Source of the DNA: Candidatus Bathyarchaeota archaeon
GTDB lineage: Archaea > Thermoproteota > Bathyarchaeia > Bathyarchaeales > Bathycorpusculaceae
Direction of reading: 5' to 3'
Assembly (NCBI GenBank): GCA_963806535.1
Contig: CAWDYC010000007.1
Span: forward strand, 333,043-397,042
Length of the DNA stretch: 64,000 nucleotides
The notes under the pieces are model-generated. The model worked only from the letters and a program-made list of their open reading frames with translations, did not search any database and had not been told where the DNA came from. Both the position numbers and the translations under genes were made by a program. Positions 16,286 through 22,520 of the stretch are shown in pieces; within the stretch, counting starts at the first letter, position 1; every line of letters begins with the position of its first letter.

Positions 16286-17128
16286 GTGAAATTAACGACT
16301 TCAAGCTTAGACATAGATTTTTCAGAAGCCGAAAAAAGAATTTCCAGATTCATTAAAGAATACGTTGAAAACGCTGGAGCCAAAGGAATCGTACTTGGGC
16401 TGTCTGGCGGAATTGACAGTGGTACAATAGCAGCGCTTTCAAGTCGTGCAATAGGCGGCGACAAGGTGCTTGGGCTCATGCTACCTGAAGAGGAAAACTT
16501 CAGCCAAAACGACATCAACGACGCAAAAATAGTTGCAGAAAAGTTTGATTTGCAAACACAGATTTGTGACATGTCAGACGTCTTAGGATGCCTGTACAAG
16601 GCGATACCCGTCTTTGATCAAAAAGATAGGGTTTGCAAAGGCAATCTAAAGGCAAGAACAAGAATGATTTACCTTTACTATTATGCTAACAAGTTTAACA
16701 GAATGGTTTGCGGCAGTTCCGATAAATCTGAAACGATGATGGGGTATTTCACCAAATGGGGAGATGCTGCAGCGGACCTAACGCCAATTATGGACTTATA
16801 CAAAACGCAAGTTCGAAAACTGGCAATTCATTTGGGTATCCCGAAGGAGCTTGCCTTAAAACCATCCACTCCAGCCCTTTGGCCTGCTCAGTTCGCAGAG
16901 ACAGAACTTGGAATCAAGTATGAAACGTTAGATCTTATTCTTTATGGGCTTGAGAAGTTTATGACGACTGATGAAATTGCGGATCAGCTGAGCATTCAGA
17001 AGCCTATTGTTACTGTTGTGAAGAGCAGATGGCTTGCAAATGAACACAAGCGAAGAATGCCATTAGCCCCGAAAATTGGGTATAGAACAGTAGGAAACGA
17101 TTTTAGACTTCCAAGACATAGCTATTGA
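16286..17128 (+). CDS. nadE: NAD+ synthetase (single-domain)
   Basis: GLSGGIDS, GNLKARTR, GYFTKWGD. Confidence 0.95.
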   Translation: MKLTTSSLDIDFSEAEKRISRFIKEYVENAGAKGIVLGLSGGIDSGTIAALSSRAIGGDKVLGLMLPEEENFSQNDINDAKIVAEKFDLQTQICDMSDVLGCLYKAIPVFDQKDRVCKGNLKARTRMIYLYYYANKFNRMVCGSSDKSETMMGYFTKWGDAAADLTPIMDLYKTQVRKLAIHLGIPKELALKPSTPALWPAQFAETELGIKYETLDLILYGLEKFMTTDEIADQLSIQKPIVTVVKSRWLANEHKRRMPLAPKIGYRTVGNDFRLPRHSY

Positions 17129-17141
17129 ACGTGGAAACCAC

Positions 17142-17975
17142 ATGAAAAACAAAATTAGACTCGCCCTTGCTCAAATAAGCAGTAGACGAGAAAACAAAGA
17201 AGTAAATTTCCAGAAAATTGAGGAATTGACTTTAAGGGCAAAAGAGCAAGGTGCCGATCTTGCAATCTTTCCTGAGCTTTCACTGTCTGGATACGTGGTT
17301 AGAGATCAATTGTATGAGTTAGCGGAGACTATTCCAGGGCCAACCGTTGAGAAAGTGGAGAAGTTGGCAAAGGAAGCGGGCATGCACGTTATTTTTGGTA
17401 TGCCAGAGTTAAGCGAGAAAACACAGGCAACGATTTTTAACACCGCTGTTTTAGTTGGTCCAAAAGGGTTAATCGGTAAATACCGCAAAATGTATTTGCC
17501 AACTCACAGTGTTTTTGAAGAAAAAAGGTATTTCCGTCCAGGTTACCAGTCAGCATCGTTTCAAACAGATTTGGGTAATATCGGTTTATGCATTTGCTAT
17601 GACATTTTCTTTCCAGAAGTCATCAGACTCACCCGGTTGAAAGGAGCACAATTAATCGTGTGCATATCAGCATCTCCAGCAGTGCGCCGAAGCTATTTTG
17701 AAACATTAACTTGCGCTAGAGCAATTGAAAATACAGCTTACGTTGCTTACGTTAACCTTGCGGGAGTTCAAGATGGGTTGCAGTTTTGGGGAGGAAGCAG
17801 GTTAGTTAGTCCATCTGGAGATATTCTTGTTAAAGCCAAATATGATGAAGAAGACTTTGTCATTTGTGACATAGATTATGCGGACCTACGTTCTGCGGAA
17901 ACATTCATTCCCACATTGAAAGATTTACGACCAGAACTGTTCGATAAACTAAGAGAGTATTCAGAACTTCTTTGA
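17142..17975 (+). CDS. Carbon-nitrogen hydrolase (nitrilase superfamily)
   Basis: E-K-C triad in IFPE, YRK and ICYD. Confidence 0.9.
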   Translation: MKNKIRLALAQISSRRENKEVNFQKIEELTLRAKEQGADLAIFPELSLSGYVVRDQLYELAETIPGPTVEKVEKLAKEAGMHVIFGMPELSEKTQATIFNTAVLVGPKGLIGKYRKMYLPTHSVFEEKRYFRPGYQSASFQTDLGNIGLCICYDIFFPEVIRLTRLKGAQLIVCISASPAVRRSYFETLTCARAIENTAYVAYVNLAGVQDGLQFWGGSRLVSPSGDILVKAKYDEEDFVICDIDYADLRSAETFIPTLKDLRPELFDKLREYSELL

Positions 17976-17998
17976 ACTTGCGCTAAAGAGTATTTCAT

Positions 17999-18095
17999 AT
18001 CACAAAAGCATCACAGCCTCATCACAAGCTGTGATATCAAAAGCCTTTTAACCATAAATCACCGTGATTTTAATGTGATTGGTGACGTCACAAAT
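17999..18095. repeat. TCAC array 1: nine RTCAC/GTGAY half-sites including the GTGACGTCAC palindrome
   Basis: ATCAC at 17999, 18010, 18021 (11-bp spacing) and 18058; GTGAT at 18031, 18064, 18075; GTGACGTCAC at 18082-18091. Confidence 0.8.
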
Positions 18096-18492
18096 TGTTT
18101 TCGTAAGCCGTTTCCTTTAATCTATTGTCAGGAAACATGAAACCTAAAAGACATAAACACCAAATAAATGTGTTTTAGAAAGTATATTGTTTCAAAACTA
18201 CCGAAATATAGACAAGTGTAGCTTTGAGAAGACGGTTGAAACTGTATTGTTTGTGTAAAATTAATAAGAAAGCTCAAGGCAAAGATCCAAGAATTTTGCT
18301 CTTTATATGTTAACTGCACATTATCACCGTTTAAAAGCCAAAAAAGCCTCTCATTTGCCGCATTTTCCCATTTTGCGTTGTATTTACTTAGTTAATAATG
18401 GCTAAATCTTAAATTGCCACTTGGATAAACCTTAAAAAGTCGACTCAGTATACAAAAGTGTATTCATTCAGGTATACGGAGAAACGGAAGAT

Positions 18493-18972
18493 TTGAAGCT
18501 CAAAGATGGCGTACAGGCATGGCTAAATGGAGCATTAAACGACCCCATTGTCAAAATACTTGCTAAAAACAGCCAATTAACAAAAACACAACTTGAAACA
18601 CTACTAATAGACATTTTAGCCGAAAATATTGCGGGAAAACAGCTAAAATACGATGAAAAAGCCAATTTACGACTAACTAAGGCTAAAATAAGCCGCGGAG
18701 CATTTAATAGGACACTAAAACAGTCCAAAGAAAACGTCATAAAATCGATATATACGGTTCTACTTTTAGGCTATTTAGGGGTGTTTGAAAGCACAACTCT
18801 CGATCCCTATCTCGAAATAGCCAATAAACTGCACGAATATGTAGACGCACACCAAGACACACCAAACAAGGAAGAGGAACTAAAAGACCATCTAAAAGTA
18901 ATAGAAATCATCCGCCAAGAGCTTGAAACAAGCCTAAAACGCCTTTCTAACCCATCAGAAGAGGTCTTGTGA
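18493..18972 (+). CDS. Uncharacterised protein with HTH-like segment
   Basis: LTKTQLETL...YDEKANLR..KISRGAFNRTLKQS resembles an HTH; clean 159-aa ORF. Confidence 0.6.
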   Translation: MKLKDGVQAWLNGALNDPIVKILAKNSQLTKTQLETLLIDILAENIAGKQLKYDEKANLRLTKAKISRGAFNRTLKQSKENVIKSIYTVLLLGYLGVFESTTLDPYLEIANKLHEYVDAHQDTPNKEEELKDHLKVIEIIRQELETSLKRLSNPSEEVL

Positions 18973-19264
18973 CGTCACAAATCACAGCGATTAACGAAAG
19001 TAATCGCCTTCAAAAGATAGTTGCATTAATCGACATAAAAACATTATTTTCAAGCCCCAAACGGCAAAATAAGATTGAATTATGCCTCTATTAATCATGT
19101 TAAACAAGAGCTTAAGAGGAATGAAAATTCTGTGACGTGTGATATCATGGTTAACGTGATTTGACATCACCACAATCCTTAAAAAGTCCATGGATAACTG
19201 TGATGTGTGATGCAACCAACTAAATCACGTATAATCACATTAAGATCACAGAGGGCAAAATCAC
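18967..19264. repeat. TCAC arrays 2 and 3
   Basis: TTGTGACGTCACAA palindrome at 18967-18980 and ATCAC at 18981; ten further half-sites in 19132-19264 (ATCAC 19166, 19224, 19234, 19245, 19260; GTGAY 19132, 19139, 19156, 19200, 19207). Confidence 0.8.
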
Positions 19265-19991
19265 GGTCGATTTTGTAACTGTTCTCTTAGGCGTTTTGCT
19301 TGTTGCGACGGTAACTGCATCAGTTGAATATTACAGGCAGGTACGTAAGGCACAGAAAGAGTATGAGAAAGCCAAGGATATTGTAGAAGATATTGTTCTT
19401 AGTTTTGACCGGGAACTCAAACGTGAAGCCGACAAATTAGATAATATTGCTTTCAAAATTGAGGGAAATTTCGCCAAAGCAGATACCAGCCTAAAAAAAG
19501 TAGACATCTTAGAGAAAAAAATAATTCCATTAGAAAATCAAATTAGCAATATGTCGCAAATTAATTCTCAAAGCAATACAAATATCCTGTCAGGATTAAC
19601 TGGTTTGGAATCGAAAATCAAAAATATAGAAACCTCACAAGAAACAATAAAAGTAAAAATTGCCAGTTTCGAAGAACAAATCCAAAAGTTTACTACCTCC
19701 CCAGAAATTAGAGCTGAACCCGTTATGCCAATTAGACGTGACAAGGCAATGGCAACATTAACCGATACAGAAATTGCAGTGCTGGAAATGTTATCTTCAG
19801 AAGGCCCTAAGACAGCGCCCGAAATCAAAGAAAAAGTACACCTCAGCAGAGAACATACAGCTAGGCTAATGAAGAAACTCTATGAAGAAGGCTACCTGGA
19901 GAGGGAAATAGGTAAAATACCGTTCAGCTACAGCATCAAAAAAGAAATGGAAAAATTGCTGAAGAAACCCGAAAACATCCAACCCACATAA
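19263..19991 (+). CDS. Putative membrane-anchored coiled-coil protein with C-terminal winged HTH
   Basis: The frame is open upstream of TTG 19296 and gives a hydrophobic VDFVTVLLGVLLVATVTASV segment; heptad-rich middle; LTDTEIAVLEML..TAPEIKEKVHLSREHTARLMKKLYEEGYLER wHTH; start codon uncertain. Confidence 0.7.
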   Translation, partial: TVDFVTVLLGVLLVATVTASVEYYRQVRKAQKEYEKAKDIVEDIVLSFDRELKREADKLDNIAFKIEGNFAKADTSLKKVDILEKKIIPLENQISNMSQINSQSNTNILSGLTGLESKIKNIETSQETIKVKIASFEEQIQKFTTSPEIRAEPVMPIRRDKAMATLTDTEIAVLEMLSSEGPKTAPEIKEKVHLSREHTARLMKKLYEEGYLEREIGKIPFSYSIKKEMEKLLKKPENIQPT

Positions 19992-20046
19992 TTTTTTAAA
20001 CTAATTATTAACACGTAGTTCAGTGTCTGACAGTTAGCAATTTATG

Positions 20047-20478
20047 TTACTTCATCCGCTGCTTCAAAGTGGCTTGAGGAATATTTGGCGCAGTTTTGTA
20101 CTTCAAATTGTTAGACCCCCCAGTTCTTAGAAGCATGCCTTTGCTTGCCATCCTTGAAAGATAGGTAGAAACTGTACTAAGACTAACTGGCTCTTTTAGC
20201 TCCTGTTCATAGACCGATTGAATTTCTTTTGAAGAAAACCAAATCAACGGAAAACTCTTTTGAACTACCAGTTGAACTTTTTCAAAACGTGAAAGAACCC
20301 GACTGGGCAAGGAAGCGCCTGCATTTACTGCAGGACCCTCACTTGGTGCACCGCCTAACAACTCTACAAGATCTAAGAGGCGAAGAGCTTTGTCTCGGGT
20401 TACTTGACCCTCGAAAGCAATAGTATATCGATTACCATCGCTATCGAACAGCTCCACACGCATCTTACGAGCTGGCAT
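20047..20478 (-). CDS. Uncharacterised protein with C-terminal winged HTH
   Basis: FSSKEIQSVYEQELKEPVSLSTVSTYLSRMASKGML wHTH pattern. Confidence 0.7.
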   Translation of the reverse strand: MPARKMRVELFDSDGNRYTIAFEGQVTRDKALRLLDLVELLGGAPSEGPAVNAGASLPSRVLSRFEKVQLVVQKSFPLIWFSSKEIQSVYEQELKEPVSLSTVSTYLSRMASKGMLLRTGGSNNLKYKTAPNIPQATLKQRMK

Positions 20479-20672
20479 TAGGTGTACACCTTAAGGTTCA
20501 CAGCTTTACACTTCACAACTTATAGCTGTTATGGTGAAACAGGGTAACATAAAAAATGAAAATAGTGCTTGTTTTAGTAAAATGATTGAAAATTTCAGTC
20601 TATTCAGCATAACCAACTTCACAATAAATCAGAATGTCTAAAGAACTAAAGTTCTGTGTTTGGTTTCAGTTC

Positions 20673-21270
20673 TCCAGTAGAAGCGGAGGGGTGTGTTGTT
20701 CACAGTAAACTGACAAGAAATAGGTAATCTTTGAGTAAAGGAAGGTGATTAAGCAACAAAATTAATGCTATTTCACATGTATTCACAATTTTGTGAACGA
20801 AAAAACAGAAAAACTCTGTGGCAAAAACTTAAAGATTGACGATCAGAAGAAAAAGCAAATACTTACGGTAAAAAACTACTGAGTTACCACTTATTTACCA
20901 TGGGAACAATGCTTGCAGAGGCACCCCTATGTTTCCTCTCGAAGTTTTGAGAGCAAAAAGAAGTCAAGAAATCTCTTAAAAAAATTTTGAAGAATTTTTA
21001 TCTAAAAAATTGGATGACAATTATTAATATACAAAATATTTACTTAACAACCAGAGTATAGTTACTAAATAATAATATATAATGTCTTTTCTGTTATTGG
21101 CTATTTTTTTCCAGTAGAAGCTTTGGGGTGTGTCTTGCTCTCTGTTTAGTTGGTTGTTATCTGATTTTTCCATGTTTTTTTAAGAATATTGTGCTATAGA
21201 ACCAGTTTTTTGTACTGTATCCTTTATCTTCTCCACACGAAATAACGGTTCTACCTCTGAAAATGAGGGG
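20673..21270. other. Chromosomal replication origin (oriC) with ORB elements and an AT-rich tract
   Basis: ORBs TCCAGTAGAAGCGGAGGGGT at 20673-20692 (+), TTCGAGAGGAAACATAGGGGT at 20923-20943 (-), TTCCAGTAGAAGCTTTGGGGT at 21109-21129 (+); weaker boxes at 21232 and 21254; AT-rich 20950-21108; directly upstream of cdc6. Confidence 0.85.
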
Positions 21271-21278
21271 ATGAGAAA

Positions 21279-22520
21279 ATGGGGGATCAAAACATATTAG
21301 ATGACGTATTCGAAAATTTCGTAAATGGCGTTCGGCTGTTTAAAGACAGAGAAGTTCTAAGGCATGACTATCTTCCTGAAAAATTACCCCACAGAGAAGA
21401 ACAAATAAAATTGCTAGGGCAAACTGTGGCACCAGTCCTAAGAGATTCCCGATGCTCCAACATTTTTATTTATGGAAAAACCGGTACTGGAAAAACAGCA
21501 GTAACAAAATATGTATTAAGTCATTTAGAATCTAAGGCAAAAGAATATGGTTCACAAGTAAAATTTTGTTATATAAATTGTCGAATGACAGGTTCAGAAT
21601 ATCGCGTTTTCGCAGCTCTAAGCCAAAACATCGGTATGACGATACCTTTTACAGGGTTATCAGTTGGCGAAGTTTTTGACAGGTTCAGAAATGCTTTAGA
21701 TTCTTCAAGAATAATTTTCATAATAATTCTCGATGAAATCGATGCCTTAATCAAAGACAAAGGTGACGCTTTCATGTATGAGTTAACAAGGATAAATGAA
21801 ACTCTAACAAAAAGCAAAGTTGCGATAATCGGGATATCAAATGATCTTCGTTTGAAAGAATTTTTGGATCCAAGAGTTTTTAGTTCTCTTAGTGAGGAAG
21901 AACTGGTTTTTAGGCCATACGACGCAGGTGAACTTCGAAATATTCTTCTTGAACGCTCAAAGCTATCTTTTCAAGATGGTGCTTTGTCTGATTCAGCATT
22001 AAGTATTTGCTCTGCTTTGGCTGCTGCAGAGCATGGTGATGCTAGGCGTGCTCTGGATTTGCTCCGTGTCGCTGGAGAAGTAGCTGAACGTCAAGGCGCA
22101 AAAGTTGTTACGGAAGAGCATGTACGTCAGGCAGAAAAACATATTGAACATAACCGAGTAGTGGAATCTCTCAAAAATTTAACGTTGCATTCCAAATTAG
22201 TGCTTCTCAGTGTTTACCACTTAAACAAACCAAGTGCAACAACAGGCGAAATATACGATGTTTACAACGAATTATGCGGCGAAATGGGCTCAGGTCTCTT
22301 AACACAACGTCGTTTGGGCACTCTAATTAATGAGCTTGATTCCATGGGGCTTGTTAACGCCAAAGTTGTGAGTATGGGACGATACGGCAGAACCAAAAAA
22401 ATAAGACTTGAAATCTCAAGAAGCTTGATCCGAGATGTATTTAATGACGATACTCGATTTAGCCGCTTAATCGACTATTCACCACAAACTCACGCAAAAG
22501 ACTTAACTCGCCAAAGTTAG
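21279..22520 (+). CDS. cdc6: Orc1/Cdc6 replication initiator
   Basis: GKTGTGKT, LDEID, HGDARRALDLLR, C-terminal wH domain SMGRYGRTK. Confidence 0.95.
   Translation: MGDQNILDDVFENFVNGVRLFKDREVLRHDYLPEKLPHREEQIKLLGQTVAPVLRDSRCSNIFIYGKTGTGKTAVTKYVLSHLESKAKEYGSQVKFCYINCRMTGSEYRVFAALSQNIGMTIPFTGLSVGEVFDRFRNALDSSRIIFIIILDEIDALIKDKGDAFMYELTRINETLTKSKVAIIGISNDLRLKEFLDPRVFSSLSEEELVFRPYDAGELRNILLERSKLSFQDGALSDSALSICSALAAAEHGDARRALDLLRVAGEVAERQGAKVVTEEHVRQAEKHIEHNRVVESLKNLTLHSKLVLLSVYHLNKPSATTGEIYDVYNELCGEMGSGLLTQRRLGTLINELDSMGLVNAKVVSMGRYGRTKKIRLEISRSLIRDVFNDDTRFSRLIDYSPQTHAKDLTRQS

Follow-up and report, generated by a model that had tools for sequence, protein, structure and literature searches.

Three DNA-binding genes beside a predicted replication origin

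The stretch of DNA analyzed here, referred to throughout as the window, comprises 64,000 nucleotides of a Bathyarchaeia genome (C7:333043-397042 in an assembly of 12 contigs and 2,948,905 bases, designated G000). Within it, three small genes that we call g1, g2 and g3 lie between a nitrilase-family gene and the gene for the replication initiator orc1/cdc6, and the non-coding DNA around g1 and upstream of g2 is crowded with short RTCAC/GTGAY half-sites. The features of the locus are listed here in window coordinates.

17142-17975: nitrilase-family gene, the upstream neighbor of the trio
17999-18093: array 1, 10 RTCAC/GTGAY half-sites directly 3' of the nitrilase stop codon
18430-18465, forward strand: predicted g1 promoter, with the TATA-like CCTTAAAAAG at 18430-18439 and the palindromic element GTATACAAAAGTGTATTC at 18448-18465
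18493-18972, forward strand: g1, 159 amino acids, TTG start, with a sigma-70 region 4/LuxR-like helix-turn-helix (HTH)
18969-18986: half-site triplet GTGACGTCACAAATCACA, overlapping the g1 stop codon
19132-19264: array 2, 10 half-sites on both sides of the predicted g2 promoter
19263-19991, forward strand: g2, approximately 242 amino acids, with an N-terminal transmembrane (TM) anchor, a coiled coil of approximately 120 amino acids and a C-terminal MarR/Lrs14-like winged helix-turn-helix (wHTH)
20047-20478, reverse strand: g3, 143 amino acids, with an N-terminal beta-hairpin and helix, a disordered linker and a C-terminal BlaI/MecI/Fur-type wHTH
20497-20538, reverse strand: predicted g3 promoter, TTCACC - CTATAA (TATA-like) - GTGAAG - GTGAA, from an alignment of 20 loci of the order
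20652-21133: oriC, with origin recognition box (ORB)-like repeats at 20652-20696 and 21089-21133 (direct) and 20922-20942 (inverted)
21279-22520, forward strand: orc1/cdc6 initiator gene (Pfam Cdc6_lid 88.3 bits, Cdc6_C 86.2 bits, AAA domains)

The spacer of 800 bp between g3 and cdc6 is home to all of the oriC repeats and to an AT-rich stretch, which lies between the repeats at 20922-20942 and 21089-21133. Repeated ORB elements around an AT-rich stretch beside orc1/cdc6 are what is expected of an archaeal oriC, and this spacer is a predicted origin. Using the ORB consensus, we found the strict core at 20673 and 21110; these are the only two strict matches in the genome, and across the order the g3-cdc6 spacer has the strict pattern in 18 of 19 loci. 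GC skew was uninformative, with no clear turn at the origin along contig C7. The oriC assignment is sound as far as the sequence goes. g3 is transcribed away from oriC.

As the initial annotation had proposed, three DNA-binding genes stand beside this origin: g2 matches the Pfam MarR family, and DNA-binding folds are predicted for g1 and g3. None of the three belongs to a named family, and the named relatives of their products are all annotated as "hypothetical protein". We rejected an integrated mobile element, or an iteron-type plasmid or viral replicon, as the source of the locus, since it is flanked by housekeeping genes whose order is conserved (nadE, nitrilase, cdc6 and PolD small subunit, in 18-20 of 20 loci). 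A search of g2 against 72,556 plasmid and 50,697 phage records likewise returned no match.

Half-site arrays around g1 and upstream of g2

The non-coding DNA of 17999-19264 contains 23 half-sites (13 RTCAC and 10 GTGAY). One of them, at 18323, is isolated, and the remainder fall into three clusters, with dominant spacings of 7, 10 and 11 bp. Array 1 includes three copies of ATCACA at 11-bp steps, ATCACA-N3-TGTGAT, ATCACcGTGAT and GTGACGTCAC. The triplet that overlaps the g1 stop codon repeats 18074-18093 in inverted orientation, the two arms of 20 nucleotides being 95% complementary. In array 2, GTGACGTGTGAT and GTGAT-N5-ATCAC are followed by the TATA-like CCTTAAAAAG at 19177-19186, by GTGATGTGTGAT at the position expected for the g2 transcription start, and then by four copies of ATCAC in the leader, the last of which contains the g2 start codon. 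A Shine-Dalgarno (SD)-like GAGGG is present at 19251-19255. Both the promoter and the transcription start of g2 are predicted assignments. A 20-nucleotide element, TGTGAT-nn-GTGACGTCAC-AA, is found in inverted orientation at 18074-18093 and 18967-18986, where its copies flank g1 at a distance of 873 nucleotides, and a pair of this kind could support a DNA loop around g1.

When TCAC and GTGA were counted over all 150-bp windows of the genome (mean 0.79, standard deviation 0.88), array 2, with 10 matches, was the densest and array 1, with 9, the second densest. These two arrays alone reach at least 8 matches, and the next-best peaks hold 7. The description given in the initial annotation is borne out, with one correction: its third cluster (20498 and 20513) turned out to be made up of TTCAC, in a distinct conserved element of the g3 promoter. 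The 14-mer that it reported at 18082 and 18969, GTGACGTCACAAAT (GTGACGTCAC followed by AAAT), is present at both positions and nowhere else in the genome. We rejected the other windows with 7 matches as related sites: four of them are accounted for by AAGTCAC, a different repeat of 10 bp, and one by a repetitive coding sequence. The AAGTCAC arrays (or their complement), of 6-8 copies each, lie at C5:365430-365530, C4:413580-413680, C11:17465-17545 and C3:146300-146370; two of the four have near-identical flanks and may belong to a repeated or mobile element, and they are unrelated to the ATCACA sites.

The composite site GTGAYRTCAC is also concentrated here, with 2 of its 3 genomic copies at the locus. 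The corresponding counts at the locus and in the whole genome are 2 of 3 in G003, 3 of 8 in G014 and 2 of 6 in G040, and in each of these four genomes from the order the genome total does not exceed that of a reversed-pattern control. Same-strand pairs at 11-bp spacing show 4 of their 9 genomic occurrences at the locus. Over 284 sites in 21 loci the half-site reads A-n-A/G-TCAC-A, and its preferred arrangements are 7 bp on the same strand (57 cases), 10-12 bp on the same strand (47) and GTGAnnTCAC (30). The feature is real, statistically extreme and deeply conserved. Mini-ORB or Orc1 sites were rejected as an account of the arrays, which accompany g2 in loci lacking cdc6 and have no core in common with the ORB repeat.

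g2 encodes a winged-helix protein with a predicted membrane anchor

The g2 product matches the Pfam MarR family (PF01047) with 34.1 bits, above the cut-off of 24.6, over residues 155-204. Further wHTH matches are TrmB (26.1 bits, cut-off 25.6) and HTH_27 (26.5 bits, cut-off 22.2), and a match to Sta1 falls below its cut-off. g2 is not a member of Lrs14 (NCBIfam NF040939), against which it scores 28.9 bits, over the wHTH only, with an equivalog cut-off of 90. In the predicted recognition helix, S-R-E-H-T-x-R-L-M-K-K-L, residues R196, E197, H198, R201 and K204 are invariant in 25 sequences from several classes. A long N-terminal coiled coil takes the place of the dimerization helices usual in MarR proteins. 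The membrane anchor that had been assigned to g2 is a prediction supported by hydropathy, with a Kyte-Doolittle value of 2.39 at residue 5 followed by basic residues. A predicted complex of the cytoplasmic part of g2 with g1 scored 0.00 in two runs made without controls, which is evidence neither for nor against an interaction.

The start codon of g2 is probably the ACG at 19263. This triplet sits in the last half-site, ATCACG, 7 nucleotides after GAGGG, and the codon that precedes V/I/F-D is ACG in 12 of the 13 loci of the genus. At the same position ATG is found in L022-L025, L028 and L031 and TTG in L026 (L and G numbers designate individual loci and genomes, respectively). The first ATG, GTG or TTG of g2 in the window falls inside the TM helix, and in L016 and L030 none of the three occurs within 32 codons. 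The conserved ACG is a separate oddity of the locus.

The arrays track g2 within and beyond the order

A single-copy homolog of g2 was found in 35 of 41 relatives. Across the 20 loci of the order, the gene order nadE-nitrilase-g1-g2-g3-cdc6-PolD is kept, with the complete trio in 19 and cdc6 in 18, the exceptions ending at contig ends. In 19 of the 20, the g1-g2 spacer contains the densest or second-densest TCAC window of the locus. In the alignment, the fixed parts are tGTGAcgTCACaaaTCACa on the g1 stop codon, GTGAyrtGTGAt, the TATA-like CCTTAAAAAG and ctGTGAtgtGTGAtgcaac, and downstream of the last of these 3-7 copies of aTCAC run to the SD-like GAGGG and the g2 start. The stop-codon triplet shows strict conservation across the genus (13 of 13 loci). 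Among 8 loci from the remaining families of the order, 6 (L022, L024, L025, L027, L028 and L032) have it as GTGAyrTCAC-N3-TCAC and two (L023 and L031) as a variant, and related forms occur in further families of the class. Seven loci (L014, L022-L025, L027 and L032) carry a gene pair on the opposite strand between g2 and g3, encoding proteins of approximately 520 amino acids, with a Walker A motif, and approximately 340 amino acids; judged by eye from the sequence, the pair looks like a helicase-nuclease pair of the HerA/NurA kind. The L027 copy has frame breaks and masked N stretches. L031 has a different gene, encoding 389 amino acids, at this place.

Array 1 is kept with 8-15 matches in 13 of 13 loci of the genus. 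It lies in a nitrilase-g1 spacer of 514 bp that is conserved at the nucleotide level; a search of this spacer for a conserved small open reading frame (ORF) gave matches in several frames on both strands and no clear reading frame. In other families the counterpart of array 1 is located at the beginning of g0, a small ORF of 94-118 amino acids that was seen 3' of the nitrilase gene or directly before g1 in L022-L024, L027 and L046, with an aminotransferase-like gene beside it. No significant Pfam family was found for g0. A dense GTGA cluster covers the g0 start codon in L023 and L024, and there are only scattered sites in L022 and L027. No g0 was found in the genome of the window, where the 514-bp spacer may be a remnant of it.

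Beyond the order, the g2 profile matches 170 of 301 Thermoproteota genomes, once per genome except for two split matches, and among them 43 of 43 genomes of one family of approximately 1.6 Mb; homologs of g1 are present in 153 of the 301. The g1-g2-g3-cdc6 block recurs in other Thermoproteota classes, including ammonia-oxidizer-like genomes, and cdc6 is within reach in 11 of 20 g1-centered loci from elsewhere in the class and phylum. The linkage of the trio to cdc6, whose conservation the initial annotation had proposed to check, is found in 18 of 20 loci of the order and 11 of 20 elsewhere. The order GGGP synthase-g1-g2-g3-cdc6-PolD is kept in L033 and L050, and as far as g3 in L051, where the record ends; the 125-bp g1-g2 spacers of this group contain 5-8 GTGA/TCAC, including one that falls on the g2 start codon. 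The core motif is invariant from Bathyarchaeia to ammonia-oxidizer-like genomes, and the anchor of g2 is kept in both and in several other families. In L034, L036, L037 and L043, from two families, g1 and g2 overlap or lie 3-4 bp apart, which suggests translational coupling, and GTGAyrTCAC is found approximately 250 bp upstream of g1 or in the g2 coding region.

The relationship of the arrays to g2 and to the origin can be separated in two sets of loci. In the first, composite sites lie within 900 bp of g1 in 30 of the 34 loci with g2 and in 0 of the 7 loci without g2 by tblastn. At E<=1e-8 the g2 profile has no match in G135, G166, G076, G301 or G180, the genomes of the g2-less loci L035, L040, L046, L048 and L049, nor in G107, which is related to G076; relaxing the threshold to E<=0.01 brings only weak partial matches, mostly to the coiled coil, in the six genomes other than G135. 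L041 and L042 have a diverged g2-like gene. The second set is made up of 14 g2-centered loci from other families, in which g1 is missing in 12 (by profile), cdc6 in 12 (within the 6-10 kb fetched) and the anchor in 12. Homologs of g2 consisting of the coiled coil and wHTH only were seen in L053-L065. The densest TCAC window is nevertheless directly upstream of g2 in 7 of the 14, with up to 10 matches per 150 bp. The arrays track g2 and not the origin, and the view of them as origin-linked sites, on which the initial annotation was built, is not supported in the form in which it was given. g3 is directly beside g2 in 10 of these 14 loci, convergent in 9, and 8 of the 10 have neither g1 nor cdc6 within reach, which makes the g2-g3 pairing more widespread than the linkage to the origin.

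Probable autoregulation of g2

Taken together with their position, these patterns suggest that the GTGAY/RTCAC arrays are operator sites of an autoregulated g2, a reading that we consider reasonably probable. The geometry is that of an operator because, in the 13 aligned loci, array 2 brackets the g2 TATA box and spans the leader, the SD-like sequence and the start codon. MarR-type wHTH proteins bind palindromes in their own promoters, and the arrangement of the sites as palindromes, as tandems at 7 bp and as rows at 10-12 bp would suit binding by dimers and in cooperative rows. The invariant recognition helix of g2 parallels the invariant core of the site motif. Because the promoters of g1 and g3 carry other conserved elements, described below, the GTGAY sites are left for g2.

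The mechanism that we propose is as follows. g2 would dimerize or oligomerize through its coiled coil, and its recognition helix would read A-n-A-TCAC-A. Paired sites (GTGAyrTCAC or the 7-bp tandem) and rows at 10-11 bp would be filled cooperatively on one face of the helix. Once g2 covered the flanks of the TATA box, the transcription start and the leader as far as the start codon, its transcription would be turned off, while the stop-codon triplet and array 1 would strengthen binding and might bring the 1.3 kb around g1 into a loop. The counterpart of array 1 in other families might also control g0. As an integral membrane protein in this lineage, g2 would place the bound DNA, 1.4-2.7 kb from the first ORB-like repeat (ORB1), at the membrane, which we would regard as a by-product and not as the selected function. 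The operator reading accounts for where the sites lie and for the fact that they persist with homologs that are soluble and distant from the origin. It also appears fairly likely that g2 is an autoregulated winged-helix regulator of new architecture, combining an anchor, a coiled coil and unusually large arrays. More broadly, we infer that the trio is an ancient cluster of self-controlled DNA-binding genes, usually beside oriC and cdc6 in Thermoproteota.

Several observations weigh against autoregulation by g2. Approximately 23 half-sites are far more than autoregulation needs, and array 1 is kept throughout the genus although g0 was not found here and no promoter is evident beside it. The composite sites are almost confined to the locus in the four genomes counted, so that no regulon is visible. 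In L066 and L067 an anchored g2 neighbors g3 and cdc6 and there is no dense array, and in 7 of the 14 g2-centered loci the densest window is not upstream of g2. The g2-less L048 reaches 7 matches per 150 bp near g1, and density alone therefore separates loci with and without g2 poorly. Finally, the co-occurrence counts given above overstate the support that they lend, since kin genomes are not independent.

g1 and g3 have promoter elements of their own

g1 has a predicted HTH at approximately residues 26-90 followed by a C-terminal helical hairpin (model predicted local distance difference test (pLDDT) 77.7). It has no Pfam or NCBIfam match, sequence and profile searches against the PDB gave nothing meaningful, and a Foldseek search of the model against the PDB returned 0 matches at E<=0.001. 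Structural alignment with VIA-align gave 7vim (Z 7.2), 8hno (Z 6.7, 29% identity) and several sigma region 4 chains (Z 6.0-6.5, residues approximately 20-92), values that are suggestive only, since by the tool's own note a Z of about 7 is within the chance range for helical models. Pfam Sigma70_r4 was matched by 1 of 32 relatives of g1 (E 0.044), and an ESM Atlas cluster in which 14% of members carry Sigma70_r4 scored 0.78 for g1; the Atlas clusters returned for g1 and g3 are all named "hypothetical protein".

Upstream of g1, the TATA box is followed by the palindrome GTATACA-N3-TGTATAC, which stands approximately 25 nucleotides before the start codon. An alignment of 13 loci from the genus shows the g1 promoter elements to be conserved, and in other families (in the range L022-L052) the palindrome precedes g1 in 15 of the 15 loci inspected. 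A stricter pattern, which misses variants including that of the window itself, matched 26 of 41 loci, two of them ammonia-oxidizer-like. The whole genome has 3 loose matches to the palindrome, which is probably g1's own operator.

For g3, the match to Pfam Penicillinase_R (19.3 bits) is below the cut-off of 22.6, and 21 of 24 relatives match that family at E<0.1 (best 2.6e-08). The g3 model (pLDDT 69.5) resembles the DNA-binding domains of Fur, MecI, BlaI and RosR with a Foldseek probability of 1.00. It lacks the C-terminal dimerization domain of BlaI/MecI and has the N-terminal beta-hairpin-helix unit instead. The motif of the g3 promoter is GTGAA, distinct from GTGAY, and a further GTGAAGnTGG was noted at approximately 20613-20625, about 30 bp from ORB1. 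The TTCACC/GTGAAG elements are possible g3 sites that abut the origin.

That g1 or g3, and not g2, reads the GTGAY sites seems to us quite unlikely. In its favor, each member of the trio has a predicted DNA-binding fold, the half-site triplet extends over the g1 stop codon, and the inverted 20-nucleotide element flanks g1; g3 is the frequent neighbor of g2 (10 of 14 loci), and its motif GTGAA is related to GTGAY. However, arrays are present where g1 is missing (no g1 by profile in 12 of the 14 loci), they are absent where g3 occurs without g2 (L035, L046, L048 and L049), and g1 has its own, different palindrome.

A further alternative, which we consider unlikely, is a replication-control module in which the trio targets cdc6 or the firing of oriC, for example through g3 at the ORB-proximal GTGAAG, while the arrays adjust how much g2 is made. 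Of the 20 loci of the order, 18 keep g3 and cdc6 in divergent orientation around oriC, a layout also found in L033, L038, L039, L041, L042, L046, L050, L052, L066 and L067. The conserved GTGAAG elements come to within approximately 30 bp of ORB1, and relatives of g3 give weak winged-helix matches to MCM_C (5 of 24) and Cdc6_C (4 of 24). On the other hand, there is no GTGAY array between the ORBs, g2 and g3 are paired in 8 of the 12 g2-centered loci lacking cdc6, and synteny alone does not show function.

A possible dedicated origin tether

The initial annotation had read the locus as an origin-linked tethering or segregation system, and a dedicated tether or centromere, in which the arrays would serve as a centromere-like landing pad, the anchored g2, perhaps with g1 and g3, would hold or position the origin at the envelope for segregation or replication control, and autoregulation would be secondary in the manner of ParR/parC or ParB/parS, is a reading that we find rather unlikely. 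It would account for arrays that have no equal elsewhere in the genome, at 1.4-2.7 kb from ORB1, with more sites than an operator needs, phasing at 10-11 bp, and an array 1 that persists without a neighboring promoter. The near absence of composite sites elsewhere in four genomes of the order, the retention of the anchor in Bathyarchaeia, ammonia-oxidizer-like genomes and several other families, and the linkage of the trio to cdc6 (18 of 20 loci in the order, 11 of 20 elsewhere in the class and phylum) point in the same direction. Yet the arrays stay with homologs of g2 that lack both the anchor and a nearby cdc6, the sites lie exactly on the promoter, leader and start codon, and in two loci (L066 and L067) an anchored g2 stands beside cdc6 without arrays. 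All sites are also confined to 1.3 kb, whereas those of RacA and Noc are dispersed. No partition ATPase is encoded nearby: ParA/MinD-type families (PF13614 and PF01656) have 0 matches inside the window, in agreement with the earlier statement that it has no ParA/SegA ATPase, and all matches in the genome fall outside C7:333043-397042, the nearest one above the cut-off being at C7:224 kb.

A Thermoproteota-wide variant of this idea dispenses with the ATPase. In this ancient device g2, as a single-pass membrane protein, would polymerize through its coiled coil on the approximately 20 phased half-sites and pin the freshly replicated origin region to the envelope, g1 and g3 would tune the complex and cdc6, and the soluble homologs of other families would be ancestral plain regulators. 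This, too, we hold to be rather improbable. Strong sites that are found only at their own locus by the origin are as in partition systems, but a closed regulatory loop fits them equally. As judged from sequence, binding that only autoregulates transcription, the case that the initial annotation had set against its own proposal, is now more likely than a tether.

A possible RNA-level element in the g2 leader

The position of the half-sites in the leader raises the alternative that GUGAU and AUCAC act in RNA, by pairing together or by resembling the 3' end of 16S rRNA, and so control the weak ACG start. The leader (19195-19285) folds at -21.8 kcal/mol (z = -2.2), with the start codon inside the last AUCAC. 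However, half-sites also occur in other arrangements, on both strands, and outside any plausible g2 transcript (array 1, z = -1.1, and upstream of the TATA box), and the predicted transcription start would remove most of the 5' arm. Compensatory changes are unscorable, as both arms are the fixed motif. No Rfam family matches; a search of 17000-22000 in E-value mode gave only two sub-threshold chance matches, mir-2 and fluoride. Sequencing runs compared with 17900-20600 included none listed with RNA, and the DNA runs share at most 0.10 of its words. We consider an RNA-level explanation very unlikely, and autoregulation of g2 remains our preferred reading.

Significance of the locus

Three single-copy genes of unnamed families remain linked, for the most part next to the origin, across classes as distant as Bathyarchaeia and ammonia-oxidizing archaea, and each has a conserved cis-element of its own. 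They form a compact, testable circuit of three proteins and three motifs within approximately 3 kb, at the least understood spot of abundant and mostly uncultured archaea. We found no account of the trio genes or the arrays in the open literature on archaeal origins, anchored wHTH proteins or segregation, and the open literature on the last topic yielded no description of a segregation system in Bathyarchaeia or ammonia-oxidizing archaea. If g2 merely autoregulates, the locus offers a new regulator architecture and a clean motif-protein assignment for annotation. If the arrays hold the origin at the membrane, they bear on chromosome positioning in archaea that lack known partition systems, and a true tether would be the first candidate for an origin-positioning mechanism in Bathyarchaeia and ammonia-oxidizing archaea.

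Comparison with known systems

SegAB and the AspA-ParB-ParA system of pNOB8 are archaeal partition systems in which the binder has its sites next to its own genes. The trio is like them in that it is predicted to encode archaeal site-specific DNA binders with sites of this kind. Repeated sites near an origin, as in ParABS and SegAB, are present (three clusters, 1.4-2.7 kb from ORB1), although such sites do not define the family by themselves. Unlike these systems, the window has no ParA/SegA ATPase gene, whether next to the binder or elsewhere, and no binder of the ParB HTH or ribbon-helix-helix type was recognized; the Pfam matches of g1, g2 and g3 include no ParB family, SegB and AspA not having been compared directly.

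In the ParR-parC system of plasmid R1, rows of 10-11-bp repeats stand on both sides of the promoter of the binder, which is a ribbon-helix-helix protein. The likeness is that one array could serve both as an operator and as a platform for a higher-order nucleoprotein complex. The differences are that the binder here would be a wHTH protein, that no ParM- or ParA-type gene is present in the window (an actin-like gene was not searched for), and that the context is chromosomal, with no plasmid or phage matches.

ToxR and CadC are membrane-bound one-component regulators, and RacA and Noc are Bacillus proteins of origin tethering and the nucleoid. With these g2 has in common a DNA-binding domain, here with a predicted link to the membrane that would keep bound DNA at the envelope, and the DNA that it would bind is next to the origin. 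The anchor of g2 is N-terminal, with almost no external part and no sensor domain evident. In contrast to RacA and Noc, whose sites are spread over the origin region or the chromosome, the dense windows and composite sites are restricted to 1.3 kb. None of the four is related to g2 in sequence, and 12 of the 14 homologs from other families have no anchor.

EnfR of Thermococcus onnurineus (TON_1525, PDB 8hno) is described as a dimeric repressor that binds a long pseudo-palindrome (PMC10570040). Residues 26-88 of g1 superpose on its HTH (Z 6.7, root-mean-square deviation 1.3 Å over 52 residues, 29% identity), a match that is limited to the HTH, has no counterpart in sequence-level searches of the PDB and, at a Z of about 7, is within the range of chance. 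In a similar way, the g1 promoter has a conserved palindrome of 17-18 bp.

A close parallel to g2 is provided by autoregulated regulators of the MarR/Lrs14 type, with which it has in common a MarR-type wHTH and a combination of palindromic and tandem sites on its own promoter. Unlike them, g2 has no regulon visible elsewhere in the genome, it is accompanied by approximately 23 half-sites in three clusters in place of one or two operators, and it adds an N-terminal anchor and a coiled coil of approximately 120 amino acids to the DNA-binding domain.

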